A stretch of DNA of 64,000 nt from Escherichia coli (GTDB lineage: Bacteria > Pseudomonadota > Gammaproteobacteria > Enterobacterales > Enterobacteriaceae). A program made the position numbers and the translations under genes. The stretch lies in the NCBI RefSeq assembly GCF_045037415.1, contig NZ_CP173438.1. The stretch is one strand, 5' to 3'. Below are positions 797 through 15,682 of this stretch, piece by piece. Numbering within the stretch: the stretch's first letter is position 1; every line of letters starts with the position of its first letter. The notes under the pieces were generated by a model that had not been told where the DNA came from, ran no database searches, and saw nothing but the letters and a program-made list of their open reading frames with translations.

Positions 797-1132
797 ATGG
801 ATAAAGAACGCATCATTCAGGAATTTGTGCCCGGTAAACAGGTCACACTGGCGCATCTCATCGCGCATCCCGGCGAGGAACTGGCGAAGAAAATCGGCGT
901 TCCGGATGCGGGCGCAATCGGCATTATGACGCTAACTCCCGGAGAAACGGCGATGATCGCCGGTGATTTAGCGTTGAAAGCCGCCGATGTGCATATCGGT
1001 TTTCTCGATCGTTTTAGTGGCGCGCTGGTGATTTATGGCTCGGTGGGCGCAGTAGAAGAAGCGTTATCACAAACCGTCAGTGGTTTAGGACGCTTATTAA
1101 ATTATACGCTTTGTGAAATGACCAAAAGTTAA
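797..1132 (+). CDS. eutS: ethanolamine utilisation microcompartment shell protein EutS (BMC domain)
   Basis: 111-aa product from internal ATG ([10 protein letters not shown]...); first gene of eut cluster. Confidence 0.9.
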
Positions 1133-1144
1133 TACGAGGCATTC

Positions 1145-1624
1145 ATGAAACGAATTGCGTTTGTGGGTACCGTCGGGGCAGGAAAAACAACGTTATTTAA
1201 TGCGTTGCAGGGGAATTATACCCTCGCAAGAAAAACACAGGCCGTGGAATTTAATGATAATGGCGATATTGATACGCCGGGTGAATATTTTAGCCATCCC
1301 CGCTGGTATCACGCCTTAATTACCACGCTACAGGATGTGGATATGCTGATCTATGTCCACGGCGCGAATGACCCGGAAAGTCGGTTGCCTGCCGGGTTGC
1401 TGGATATTGGCGTCAGCAAACGGCAAATCGCCGTCATCAGTAAAACGGACATGCCAGATGCTGACGTCGCCGCAACGCGAAAGTTATTGCTTGAGACGGG
1501 CTTCGAAGAGCCGATTTTCGAGCTAAACAGCCACGACCCGCAAAGCGTGCAGCAACTGGTGGATTATCTGGCATCTCTCACCAAACAGGAGGAAGCAGGT
1601 GAAAAAACTCATCACAGCGAATGA
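1145..1624 (+). CDS. eutP: EutP, P-loop GTPase/acetate kinase-like protein
   Basis: 159 aa, Walker A GTVGAGKTT; eut synteny. Confidence 0.9.
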   Translation: MKRIAFVGTVGAGKTTLFNALQGNYTLARKTQAVEFNDNGDIDTPGEYFSHPRWYHALITTLQDVDMLIYVHGANDPESRLPAGLLDIGVSKRQIAVISKTDMPDADVAATRKLLLETGFEEPIFELNSHDPQSVQQLVDYLASLTKQEEAGEKTHHSE

Positions 1625-2300
1625 TATTCGTGAAGCACACGCGCGCGGCGAACTGGCAATGTCCGTGGTTCTGCGCGCCAGCATTATTACCCCGGAAGCT
1701 CGTGAAGTGGCTGATCTGTTGGGTTTTACCATCACCGAATGTGATGAATCGATCCCGGTAACGGCGTCTGTTCCCGCCAGCGCATCAGCCGATAAAACCG
1801 AAAGCCAGCGCATCCGTGAAACCATTATCGCCCAACTGCCGGAAGGTCAGTTTACCGAAAGCCTGGTCGCGCAGCTGATGGAAAAAGTGATGAAGGAAAA
1901 ACAGTCGCTGGAACAGGGTGCACTGCAGCCGAGCTTTAAATCGGTGACCGGCAAAGGCGGCATCAAAGTTATTGATGGCAGCAGCGTCAAGTTTGGTCGT
2001 TTCGATGGCGCGGAACCGCACTGCGTAGGCTTGACTGATCTCGTGACCGGAGACGACGGCAGCAGTATGGCCGCTGGTTTCATGCAGTGGGAGAACGCCT
2101 TCTTTCCGTGGACCCTGAACTACGACGAAATCGACATGGTGCTGGAAGGGGAGCTGCATGTTCGCCACGAAGGCGAAACTATGATCGCCAAAGCGGGCGA
2201 TGTGATGTTTATCCCGAAAGGCTCCAGCATCGAATTTGGTACGACATCCAGCGTGAAATTCCTGTATGTCGCCTGGCCGGCTAACTGGCAATCCTTATGA
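1599..2300 (+). CDS. eutQ: EutQ, cupin-domain ethanolamine utilisation protein
   Basis: 233 aa; 26-bp overlap with eutP; eut synteny. Confidence 0.9.
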   Translation: MKKLITANDIREAHARGELAMSVVLRASIITPEAREVADLLGFTITECDESIPVTASVPASASADKTESQRIRETIIAQLPEGQFTESLVAQLMEKVMKEKQSLEQGALQPSFKSVTGKGGIKVIDGSSVKFGRFDGAEPHCVGLTDLVTGDDGSSMAAGFMQWENAFFPWTLNYDEIDMVLEGELHVRHEGETMIAKAGDVMFIPKGSSIEFGTTSSVKFLYVAWPANWQSL

Positions 2301-3100
2301 AAGATTTCATCACCGAAGCATGGCTAAGAGCGAACCATACGCTCAGCGAAGGCGCAGAGATCCATCTCCCTGCGGACAGTCGCCTGACGCCCTCTGCCCG
2401 GGAGTTACTGGAAAGCCGCCATCTGCGCATCAAGTTTATTGACGAGCAGGGCCGCCTGTTTGTTGACGATGAACAGCAGCAGCCGCAGCCCGTTCACGGG
2501 CTGACCAGTAGCGATGAACATCCGCAGGCGTGCTGCGAACTGTGCCGCCAGCCGGTGGCAAAAAAGCCGGATACGCTGACTCACCTGTCGGCGGAAAAAA
2601 TGGTTGCCAAAAGCGATCCGCGTCTGGGTTTTCGCGCTGTTCTCGACAGCACCATTGCGCTGGCAGTGTGGCTGCAAATTGAACTGGCAGAACCGTGGCA
2701 GCCGTGGCTGGCGGACATCCGCTCGCGTCTTGGCAACATTATGCGTGCCGATGCGCTGGGGGAACCGCTGGGCGAGCAAGCGATTGTCGGGCTTTCTGAC
2801 GAAGATCTGCATCGGCTTTCTCACCAGCCGCTGCGTTATCTCGACCACGATCATCTGGTGCCGGAAGCCAGCCACGGGCGCGATGCGGCGTTGCTCAATC
2901 TGCTACGCACCAAAGTGCGGGAAACAGAAACCGTAGCGGCGCAGGTCTTTATCACCCGCAGCTTTGAAGTATTACGCCCGGACATTTTGCAGGCGCTGAA
3001 CCGCCTTTCCAGCACGGTCTACGTGATGATGATCCTGAGCGTAACGAAGCAGCCGCTAACGGTGAAGCAGATCCAACAACGACTGGGGGAAACGCAATGA
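2297..3100 (+). CDS. eutT: EutT, ethanolamine utilisation cob(I)alamin adenosyltransferase
   Basis: 267 aa; 4-bp start/stop overlap with eutQ; synteny. Confidence 0.9.
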
Positions 3101-13411: not shown

Positions 13412-14071
13412 ATGCCAGCTTTAGATTTGATTCGACCGTCGGTAACCGCCATGCGGGTGATTGCCTCCGTTAACGCCGAATTTGCACGTGAACTGAAATT
13501 GCCGCCGCATATTCGTAGCCTCGGGCTGATTTCTGCTGATTCAGATGACGTCACCTACATTGCGGCTGACGAAGCGACCAAGCAGGCGATGGTCGAAGTG
13601 GTATATGGTCGCTCGCTGTATGCGGGCGCTGCACACGGCCCGTCACCGACTGCCGGTGAGGTGCTGATTATGCTTGGTGGACCAAACCCGGCGGAAGTGC
13701 GTGCTGGTCTGGATGCGATGGTTGCGAATATTGAAAATGGCGCTGCTTTCCAGTGGGCTAATGACGCAGAAAACACAGCCTTCCTGGCACATGTAGTTTC
13801 GCGTACCGGTTCTTATCTCTCATCAACCGCCGGGATCACGCTTGGCGATCCGATGGCGTATCTGGTGGCACCGCCGCTGGAAGCGACCTACGGCATTGAT
13901 GCAGCGTTGAAATCTGCCGACGTGCAGCTGGTGACCTATGTCCCGCCACCGTCTGAAACCAACTACTCGGCAGCATTTTTAACCGGTAGCCAGGCCGCGT
14001 GTAAAGCAGCCTGTAACGCCTTTACCGATGCAGTGCTGGAAATCGCGCGTAATCCAATCCAGCGTGCGTAA
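13412..14071 (+). CDS. eutL: EutL, tandem-BMC-domain shell protein
   Basis: 219 aa; synteny. Confidence 0.9.
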
Positions 14072-14083
14072 CGGAGGTTGCCG

Positions 14084-14584
14084 ATGATCAATGCACTGGG
14101 ATTGCTGGAAGTGGACGGCATGGTCGCCGCGATAGATGCAGCTGATGCCATGCTCAAAGCAGCTAACGTTCGTCTGCTCAGTCACGAAGTGCTTGACCCT
14201 GGTCGCCTAACGCTGGTGGTGGAAGGCGATCTGGCGGCGTGTCGTGCGGCGCTGGACGCAGGTTGTGCTGCCGCGATGCGTACCGGGCGTGTCATCAGCC
14301 GCAAGGAGATCGGTCGGCCAGACGATGACACCCAGTGGCTGGTTACTGGCTTTAACCGCCAGCCTAAGCAACCCGTAAAGGAACCCGACGCGCCAGTTAT
14401 CGTCGCGGAATCTGCTGACGAGTTGTTGGCGCTGTTAACATCAGTACGTCAGGGAATGACGGCAGGAGAAGTGGCTGCCCACTTTGGCTGGCCGCTGGAA
14501 AAAGCCAGAAATGCGCTCGAACAGCTCTTTTCTGCCGGGACGTTACGTAAACGCAGTAGTCGTTACCGTCTCAAGCCCCATTAA
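14084..14584 (+). CDS. eutK: EutK, BMC shell protein with C-terminal nucleic-acid-binding-like domain
   Basis: 166 aa from ATG (MINALGLLEV...); ORF track start at 14078 is an alternative. Confidence 0.85.
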   Translation: MINALGLLEVDGMVAAIDAADAMLKAANVRLLSHEVLDPGRLTLVVEGDLAACRAALDAGCAAAMRTGRVISRKEIGRPDDDTQWLVTGFNRQPKQPVKEPDAPVIVAESADELLALLTSVRQGMTAGEVAAHFGWPLEKARNALEQLFSAGTLRKRSSRYRLKPH

Positions 14585-14629
14585 CCTGTCGGAGGTGCCG
14601 GGTGTCCTACAACACCCGGCATTAACATC

Positions 14630-15682
14630 ATGAAAAAGACCCGTACAGCCAATTTGCACCATCTTTATCATGAACCCTTACCCGAAAACCTGAAGCTCAC
14701 GCCGAAGGTCGAAGTGGATAATGTTCATCAACGACAGACAACGGACGTCTATGAACATGCTTTGACAATTACCGCCTGGCAGCAGATTTACGATCAGCTG
14801 CATCCGGGCAAGTTTCATGGTGAATTTACGGAAATTCTACTCGATGATATTCAGGTTTTTCGTGAATACACTGGTCTGGCGCTGCGTCAGTCGTGCCTGG
14901 TCTGGCCGAACTCGTTCTGGTTTGGCATTCCGGCGACGCGCGGTGAGCTGGGATTTATCGGTTCGCAATGTCTGGGAAGCGCAGAAATTGCGACGCGCCC
15001 GGGTGGAACCGAGTTTGAATTAAGTACGCCGGACGATTACACGATCCTTGGCGTAGTGCTTTCTGAAGATGTCATCACTCGTCAGGCTAACTTTTTGCAT
15101 AATCCGGATCGGGTATTACATATGCTGCGTAGCCAGTCGGCGCTGGAAGTGAAAGAGCAGCATAAAGCCGCTCTGTGGGGCTTTGTCCAACAGGCGCTGG
15201 CGACGTTTTGCGAGAACCCGGAAAATCTCCATCAGCCTGCAGTGCGAAAAGTGCTGGGGGATAATTTGCTCATGGCGATGGGGGCGATGCTGGAAGAAGC
15301 GCAGCCGATGATGACGGCGGAAAGCATCAGCCATCAGAGTTACCGCCGATTGCTTTCCCGCGCCCGTGAATATGTGCTGGAAAACATGTCCGAACCGGTG
15401 ACGGTGCTGGACTTGTGTAATCAACTGCATGTCAGCCGCCGCACGCTACAAAACGCATTTCACGCCATTTTGGGCATTGGTCCGAACGCGTGGCTGAAAC
15501 GTATTCGCCTGAACGCCGTGCGCCGCGAACTCATAAGTCCGTGGTCACAAAGCACAACGGTAAAAGACGCCGCCATGCAGTGGGGATTCTGGCATCTTGG
15601 GCAATTTGCCACGGATTATCAGCAACTGTTTGCCGAGAAGCCGTCACTGACGCTGCATCAGCGGATGCGAGAGTGGGGGTGA
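14630..15682 (+). CDS. eutR: EutR, AraC-family activator of the eut operon
   Basis: 350 aa; C-terminal AraC-type HTH. Confidence 0.9.

Follow-up and report, generated by a model that had tools for sequence, protein, structure and literature searches.

The stretch of DNA examined here (hereafter the window) comprises 64,000 nucleotides (nt) of the Escherichia coli contig NZ_CP173438.1 (RefSeq assembly GCF_045037415.1). Between positions 797 and 15682, the listing of its open reading frames (ORFs) contains 17 consecutive frames in the order eutS-P-Q-T-D-M-N-E-J-G-H-A-B-C-L-K-R, all of them on the plus strand. They are flanked upstream by maeB, which ends at 504, and downstream by the convergent hemF, which runs from 15688. 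A first-pass annotation had described this group as a complete ethanolamine-utilization (eut) microcompartment locus with all 17 genes intact and in canonical order, and both the RefSeq coordinates and the lengths and order of the genes in E. coli K-12 agree with that description. All 17 sets of coordinates are those of the RefSeq annotation of NZ_CP032201, an E. coli chromosome that is identical over the locus and differs at one base over positions 1-44000 of the window. The locus is almost certainly a complete, uninterrupted chromosomal eut operon of the EUT1 type of E. coli, and nothing in its sequence speaks against this reading.

Every frame begins with ATG, or with GTG in the cases of eutQ and eutA, ends in a stop codon, and is free of internal stops. 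No gene differs in length from its counterpart in K-12 MG1655, and the encoded proteins differ from those of that strain by 0-12 residues each. Frameshifts and premature stop codons, of which the first-pass annotation had seen none, were looked for, and none was found. The genes had also been called tightly coupled. That part of the description applies to most of the operon, as five pairs of genes overlap (eutP/eutQ by 26 nt, eutQ/eutT by 4, eutT/eutD by 4, eutJ/eutG by 11, and eutH/eutA by 4) and the remaining intergenic gaps are 9-45 nt. It does not apply to eutM-eutN (106 nt) and eutG-eutH (216 nt), where structured spacers intervene. In K-12 MG1655 and BW25113, the gene lengths and the lengths of both spacers are the same.

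Identities were assigned using NCBIfam models for Eut proteins and enzyme families; all 17 products were matched end to end, with scores above the curated cut-offs. Five of the genes encode shell proteins, as had been claimed. Pfam placed the bacterial microcompartment (BMC) domain PF00936 in EutS, EutM, EutK and EutL (twice in the last), and PF03319 (EutN_CcmL) in EutN. EutS (797-1132, 111 residues; NF012012, 247 bits, residues 1-111 of 111) is the bent BMC hexamer, and EutM (4152-4445, 97 residues; NF012018, 213 bits, 1-97 of 97) is the major hexameric shell protein. EutN (4552-4839, 95 residues; NF011992, 210 bits; PF03319 over 1-83 of 83) is the pentameric vertex protein. These three proteins are identical to those of K-12. 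EutL (13412-14071, 219 residues; NF011934, 401 bits) is the trimeric shell protein with tandem BMC domains, and EutK (14084-14584, 166 residues; NF012010, 362 bits) combines a BMC domain with a C-terminal helical domain (PF16365, EutK_C; PDB 3i71, residues 108-166). EutS (PDB 3i96), EutL (3gfh and 3i82), EutN (2hd3 and 2z9h), and the large lyase subunit EutB (3abo) each aligned end to end with Eut structures that have been solved for E. coli.

The B12-dependent ethanolamine ammonia-lyase EutBC and its reactivase EutA, both named in the first-pass annotation, were recovered by full-length NCBIfam matches. EutB (11133-12494, 453 residues; NF011649, 664 bits) aligns with 3abo over residues 1-453 of 453; the small subunit EutC (12515-13402, 295 residues; NF003971, 340 bits) carries a putative N-terminal encapsulation peptide, and EutA (9718-11121, 467 residues; NF007991, 1069 bits) is the reactivase. 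The roles that had been given to the remaining enzymes, the permease, the chaperone-like protein, and the regulator are likewise borne out, since each product matches its own NCBIfam model over its full length. EutP (1145-1624, 159 residues; NF012011, 351 bits; PF10662, PduV-EutP) is a P-loop protein annotated as an acetate kinase. EutQ (1599-2300, 233 residues; NF012001, 498 bits; PF06249) is a cupin-type acetate kinase that also serves as a linker between cargo and shell (PMC12487888). EutD (3097-4113, 338 residues; NF007233, 410 bits; TIGR00651, 331 bits) is the phosphotransacetylase and bears the name “pta” in RefSeq. EutT (2297-3100, 267 residues; NF011595, 569 bits) is the ATP:cob(I)alamin adenosyltransferase, and its translation contains H67, C79, C80 and C83, which we take to be the metal-binding motif. 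The CoA-acylating acetaldehyde dehydrogenase EutE (4851-6254, 467 residues; NF011927, 731 bits) begins with MNQQDIEQVVKAVLLKM. The actin/Hsp70-fold protein EutJ (6265-7101, 278 residues; NF011660, 400 bits), the iron-type alcohol dehydrogenase EutG (7091-8278, 395 residues; NF011998, 882 bits, 1-395 of 395), the membrane ethanolamine permease EutH (8495-9721, 408 residues; NF011665, 873 bits), and the AraC-family operon activator EutR (14630-15682, 350 residues; NF007522, 787 bits, 1-350 of 350; AraC-type HTH domains PF12833 and PF00165) complete the set.

The N-termini of EutC and EutE, as read from the translations, are candidate targeting peptides. That of EutC contains I6, V10, V13 and M14, the residues reported to contact EutQ in Salmonella (PMC12487888), and residues 1-20 of EutC have been assigned a role in encapsulation (PMC11334477, PMC12487888).

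Shell proteins and a core of aldehyde dehydrogenase, phosphotransacylase and alcohol dehydrogenase are common to several types of metabolosome, and EutS, EutL and EutM also gave weaker matches to Pdu and carboxysome models. It is nonetheless extremely improbable that another microcompartment (one for propanediol, choline, or some other aldehyde metabolosome) has been misread as eut. The signature enzyme is an ethanolamine ammonia-lyase, as judged from the alignment of EutB with 3abo and of EutC with the EutC equivalog. The Eut-specific equivalogs far outscore the Pdu and carboxysome models for every shell protein, and neither a diol dehydratase nor a glycyl-radical enzyme is present among the ORFs of the region.

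The junction between eutA and eutB is a hot spot for prophage insertion (PMC6652756). In K-12 MG1655, it is occupied by the 6.8-kb cryptic prophage CPZ-55, which is bordered at both ends by CTTCCTGA. The window contains a single copy of this motif at the junction (11114-11121, plus strand), where it covers the stop codon of eutA, and the gap between the two genes is 11 nt. Because the motif occurs once here and at both ends of CPZ-55 in K-12, the site in the window is empty, i.e. it is the unoccupied attachment core of a CPZ-55-type prophage. The comparison to the E. coli reference operon that had been suggested returned the K-12 gene order, with the nuance that “intact” includes the absence of the MG1655 prophage. 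An uninterrupted operon is needed for ethanolamine use in K-12: the interrupted form fails to use ethanolamine, scarless removal of the prophage from BW25113 restores this ability, and W3110, whose operon is uninterrupted, forms compartments (PMC11334477).

The distribution of the locus was assessed by megablast in a set of 5,426 complete E. coli genomes. Positions 700-15800 of the window were matched in 5,425 of them, and many complete chromosomes, many of these from clinical isolates, were 100% identical across all 15,101 nt; several of the identical strains are, we presume, sequence type 131 (ST131) isolates. The tally of genomes in which a single place held 80% or more of the query (4294 of 5426) was considered as a count of intact operons and was rejected. 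The search tool leaves apart those pieces in which one and the same query segment recurs, while K-12-type inserts of 6.8 kb are joined, and the breaks at query position 7765 (window 8464) reflect a third 100-nt repeat unit in the eutG-eutH spacer of operons in which all 17 genes are intact. Since copy-number variation of that repeat splits intact operons into two places, a 600-nt query spanning the eutA-eutB junction was preferred; the junction was contiguous in 4,963 of the 5,426 genomes, about 8.5% being without it. Some of the latter have an insert bigger than that of K-12 (hits H59 and H60, in which the matches stop at window position 11121).

The operon belongs to a known system, this copy of it is unremarkable, and the stretch around it is ordinary E. 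coli core chromosome. The first-pass annotation had flagged the locus as context rather than novelty, and that view is correct. K-12 W3110 and the EUT1 loci of uropathogenic and commensal E. coli have the same 17 genes in the same order and with the same lengths, the same maeB and hemF flanks, and an eutA-eutB junction free of inserts. Compared with the K-12 sequence from which the prophage has been subtracted, the nucleotide identity is 96.5%, and the differences are allelic only. The eut operons of E. coli and Salmonella have been studied for decades, and the value of the present copy is as context: the strain carries the uninterrupted form of a pathway that has been linked to fitness in the gut and the urinary tract.

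Upstream of eutS, an alignment of the maeB-eutS spacers of nine Enterobacteriaceae sequences revealed a block (695-768, plus strand) that is conserved across genera and is intact in the window. It contains a CRP-like GTGA-N6-TCAC site (697-712) and two other invariant stretches, TTGCCGAATTTTGTTATTTAC (725-745) and TTGTCACGAT (758-767). The block is presumably the main P1 promoter/operator, and CRP and EutR may act there. A scan for sigma-70 consensus sequences found no strong promoter upstream of eutS and none upstream of eutR, such that P1 and P2 were not located, and the paper on CsrA gives no transcription start for eutS. The CRP-like pattern was matched 19 times in the window against 25.6 matches expected, so counting lends no support to the site at 697-712; because the pattern is no commoner than chance would have it, the argument for this site is its conservation across genera only. 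Between a hairpin that follows maeB (525-548) and the conserved block, Escherichia has about 130 nt of additional AT-rich sequence (about 550-690) that is not found in the other genera.

Two changes relative to K-12 alter several nucleotides of a single codon: TGC to GAG at codon 160 of eutT (2774-2776), which replaces Cys with Glu, and GAT to TGC at codon 364 of eutA (10807-10809), which replaces Asp with Cys. Both were considered as possible defects and were rejected as such, as both positions are variable across genera; the two changes are probably neutral, to judge from that variability.

Synonymous (dS) and nonsynonymous (dN) divergence from K-12 was estimated using the Nei-Gojobori method. 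The pooled values were 0.134 for dS and 0.0063 for dN, the resulting dN/dS being 0.047; no individual gene exceeded 0.19. When eight further Enterobacteriaceae lineages were compared, dN was far below dS in all comparable genes. The operon is under strong purifying selection.

These results bear on whether the operon, though intact in appearance, could be a decaying remnant that has been silenced or crippled by a regulatory or missense change. Several observations could be taken to favor such a state. The proteins differ from those of K-12 at 68 residues in total, the changes at EutT 160 and EutA 364 among them, and the disrupted junction in about 8.5% of the complete genomes implies that some lineages tolerate losing the pathway. 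Against a remnant stand the pooled dN/dS, the variability among genera of EutT 160 and EutA 364 (which are therefore not conserved catalytic residues), the conserved and intact upstream block, and the occurrence of the exact sequence in many independent clinical isolates. A silent or crippled operon is accordingly regarded as very unlikely, although less so than the misreading of another metabolosome, and by analogy to the strains studied experimentally, the intact operon presumably provides this strain with a working ethanolamine pathway.

Divergence from K-12 is uneven along the operon. Most 400-nt windows differ by about 4%, whereas the region around eutM and eutN (4001-5200) has 5 differences per 1,200 nt. 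In this segment and in two others (10801-11600 and 14001-14800), the divergence from both K-12 and strain G5 is 0.4-1.4%. Between genera, dS is somewhat reduced in eutM and eutN. The low-divergence segments could reflect recombination, codon bias or another synonymous constraint, or both.

The mechanism outlined here draws on studies of Salmonella and E. coli K-12 and is carried over to this strain by analogy. A weak constitutive promoter near eutR would maintain a low level of EutR; in the presence of ethanolamine and adenosylcobalamin (AdoCbl), EutR would switch on the main promoter, which lies upstream of eutS, and thereby raise its own level in a positive feedback (PMC5821096). The polyhedral shell would be built from EutM as the major hexamer, the EutL trimer, EutK, EutS, and the vertex pentamer EutN. 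Its assembly would begin from EutM, with EutN closing the vertices, and EutQ would connect the EutM/EutL shell to the cargo via the peptides at the N-termini of EutC and EutE (PMC12487888). EutH would bring in ethanolamine, at low pH (PMC5821096). Following the enzyme roles given in PMC5821096, EutBC inside the shell would cleave ethanolamine to ammonia and acetaldehyde, and EutE would convert the latter, which is volatile and toxic, to acetyl-CoA. EutG and EutD would regenerate NAD+ and CoA, and EutD together with EutQ and EutP would yield acetate and ATP. EutA and EutT would maintain the B12 cofactor. Salmonella can make B12 anaerobically, which E. coli is not known to do; the corrinoid would have to come from outside the E. 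coli cell.

The experimental reference for this mechanism, Salmonella enterica Typhimurium LT2, has the same 17-gene content, with regulation by EutR and two promoters (PMC5821096), and the Eut proteins of LT2 and E. coli K-12 are more than 73% identical (PMC11334477). The EUT2 loci of Firmicutes (Enterococcus, Listeria, and Clostridioides) have the lyase, shell, and aldehyde core in common with the present operon (PMC5821096). Their control differs: EUT2 relies on the EutVW two-component antiterminator and a small RNA with an AdoCbl riboswitch (PMC5821096), whereas the present locus has the AraC-type EutR and the window contains no Rfam cobalamin riboswitch. Neither a histidine kinase nor an ANTAR regulator was found among the ORFs of the locus, in which eutR comes last. 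Across the operon, the Rfam scan detected no riboswitch of any kind and no other known RNA, save for naRNA4, which is derived from repetitive extragenic palindromic (REP) elements.

That match lies in the eutG-eutH spacer. This spacer holds two tandem 100-nt bacterial interspersed mosaic element (BIME) units, each of which is an inverted pair of REP elements (8277-8464; no strand assigned). The direct repeat is 88 nt long and 97% identical, with a spacing of 100. The naRNA4 match (75.5 bits, 8333-8414) corresponds to one unit, and the predicted RNA fold of the array has a z-score of -4.6. The number of units varies: the window and K-12 each have two, strain G5 and Escherichia sp. E1V33 have three, Escherichia sp. 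MOD1-EC7003 has more than four, Citrobacter and Pseudocitrobacter have a single one, and Pluralibacter and Entomohabitans are without any.

The eutM-eutN spacer (4446-4551, plus strand) is structured in a different manner. Its 10-bp hairpin (4453-4478) leads into a run rich in T, after which come another hairpin (about 4480-4520) and a conserved Shine-Dalgarno/start sequence, CACGGAGGCGGGTATG. Its predicted fold has an energy of -43.5 kcal/mol and a z-score of -2.4. The spacer also gave a terminator-like match; such hits are no commoner than in shuffled sequence. It is identical in K-12.

For a wider comparison, 22 loci were drawn from species-representative genomes by means of a degenerate DNA pattern for the N-terminus of EutN. 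The set included Escherichia spp., Citrobacter, Salmonella diarizonae, Klebsiella, Pseudocitrobacter, Pluralibacter, Yokenella, Entomohabitans and Intestinirhabdus. The order maeB-eutSPQTDMNEJGHABCLKR was held in every retrieved locus (21 Enterobacteriaceae loci besides this one), to the extent that each one covers it. The S. diarizonae fragment has eutD-M-N-E in the same order, with 88-96% protein identity; its eutM-eutN spacer consists of REP-like elements, whereas that of Escherichia consists of the hairpin pair. In the other genera examined, the spacer is 52-144 nt long and always contains a strong hairpin, the sequence of which is unrelated. Across the loci (L006-L027), the hairpin is of one of two types, a GTGACGTC palindrome or a REP; it is a REP-like element in S. 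diarizonae, several Citrobacter, Klebsiella michiganensis, Pluralibacter, and Pseudocitrobacter. The Shine-Dalgarno/start sequence is common to most of the genera compared, with small variations elsewhere. A covariation check of the hairpin gave no signal either way, as the sequences with this stem do not vary in it.

In K-12 W3110, the ratio of EutM to EutN protein is 96:1, and on that scale the downstream proteins EutE and EutB stand at 27 and 37, respectively (PMC11334477). Because EutE and EutB stay high, simple termination in the spacer does not explain the low level of EutN. The eutM-eutN hairpins could instead stabilize the mRNA, damp the translation of eutN, or both. A broader proposal, which we advance tentatively and consider rather doubtful, is that the two structured spacers are functional punctuation: the eutM-eutN hairpins, and their REP counterparts elsewhere, would shield the mRNA upstream of them, reduce the translation of eutN, or both, and the BIME array would act similarly for the operon's distal half. 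Were this so, the spacer hairpins would help to set the roughly 100:1 ratio of EutM to EutN that a closed shell needs, and the presence of unrelated hairpins in every genus examined would reflect selection for structure at this position. Spacers that set shell stoichiometry would be a modest refinement of the known system, one that could be useful in microcompartment engineering.

Some of the retrieved loci had peculiarities of their own. One (L013) is a 446-nt contig with 0.78x coverage (JACBYF010000082.1) from a Gemelliphila palaticanis assembly; it encodes an enterobacterial EutN with 89% identity and is probably contamination. The loci of Citrobacter koseri NCTC10786 (L019) and C. amalonaticus AUH (L012) have many broken eut frames, which are probably assembly errors.

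At the distal end of the operon, only 5 nt (15683-15687) separate the stop codons of the convergent eutR and hemF; beyond eutR, no terminator-like hairpin was detected. Farther downstream, pbp4b (yfeW) and murR, which lie beside murPQ in strain G5, are absent from the window, as a tblastn search of its whole length returned no match to either. The missing DNA amounts to about 1.4 kb and 0.9 kb, at about 20170-20343 and 22669-22947, and the identical record carries the annotation of a pseudogene remnant of 87 nt at 20255-20341. The tRNA cluster at 44998-45275 reads Lys-Val-Val here and Lys-Val-Val-Val in the near-identical NZ_CP032201, the difference being one tRNA-Val(UAC) unit of roughly 120 nt.

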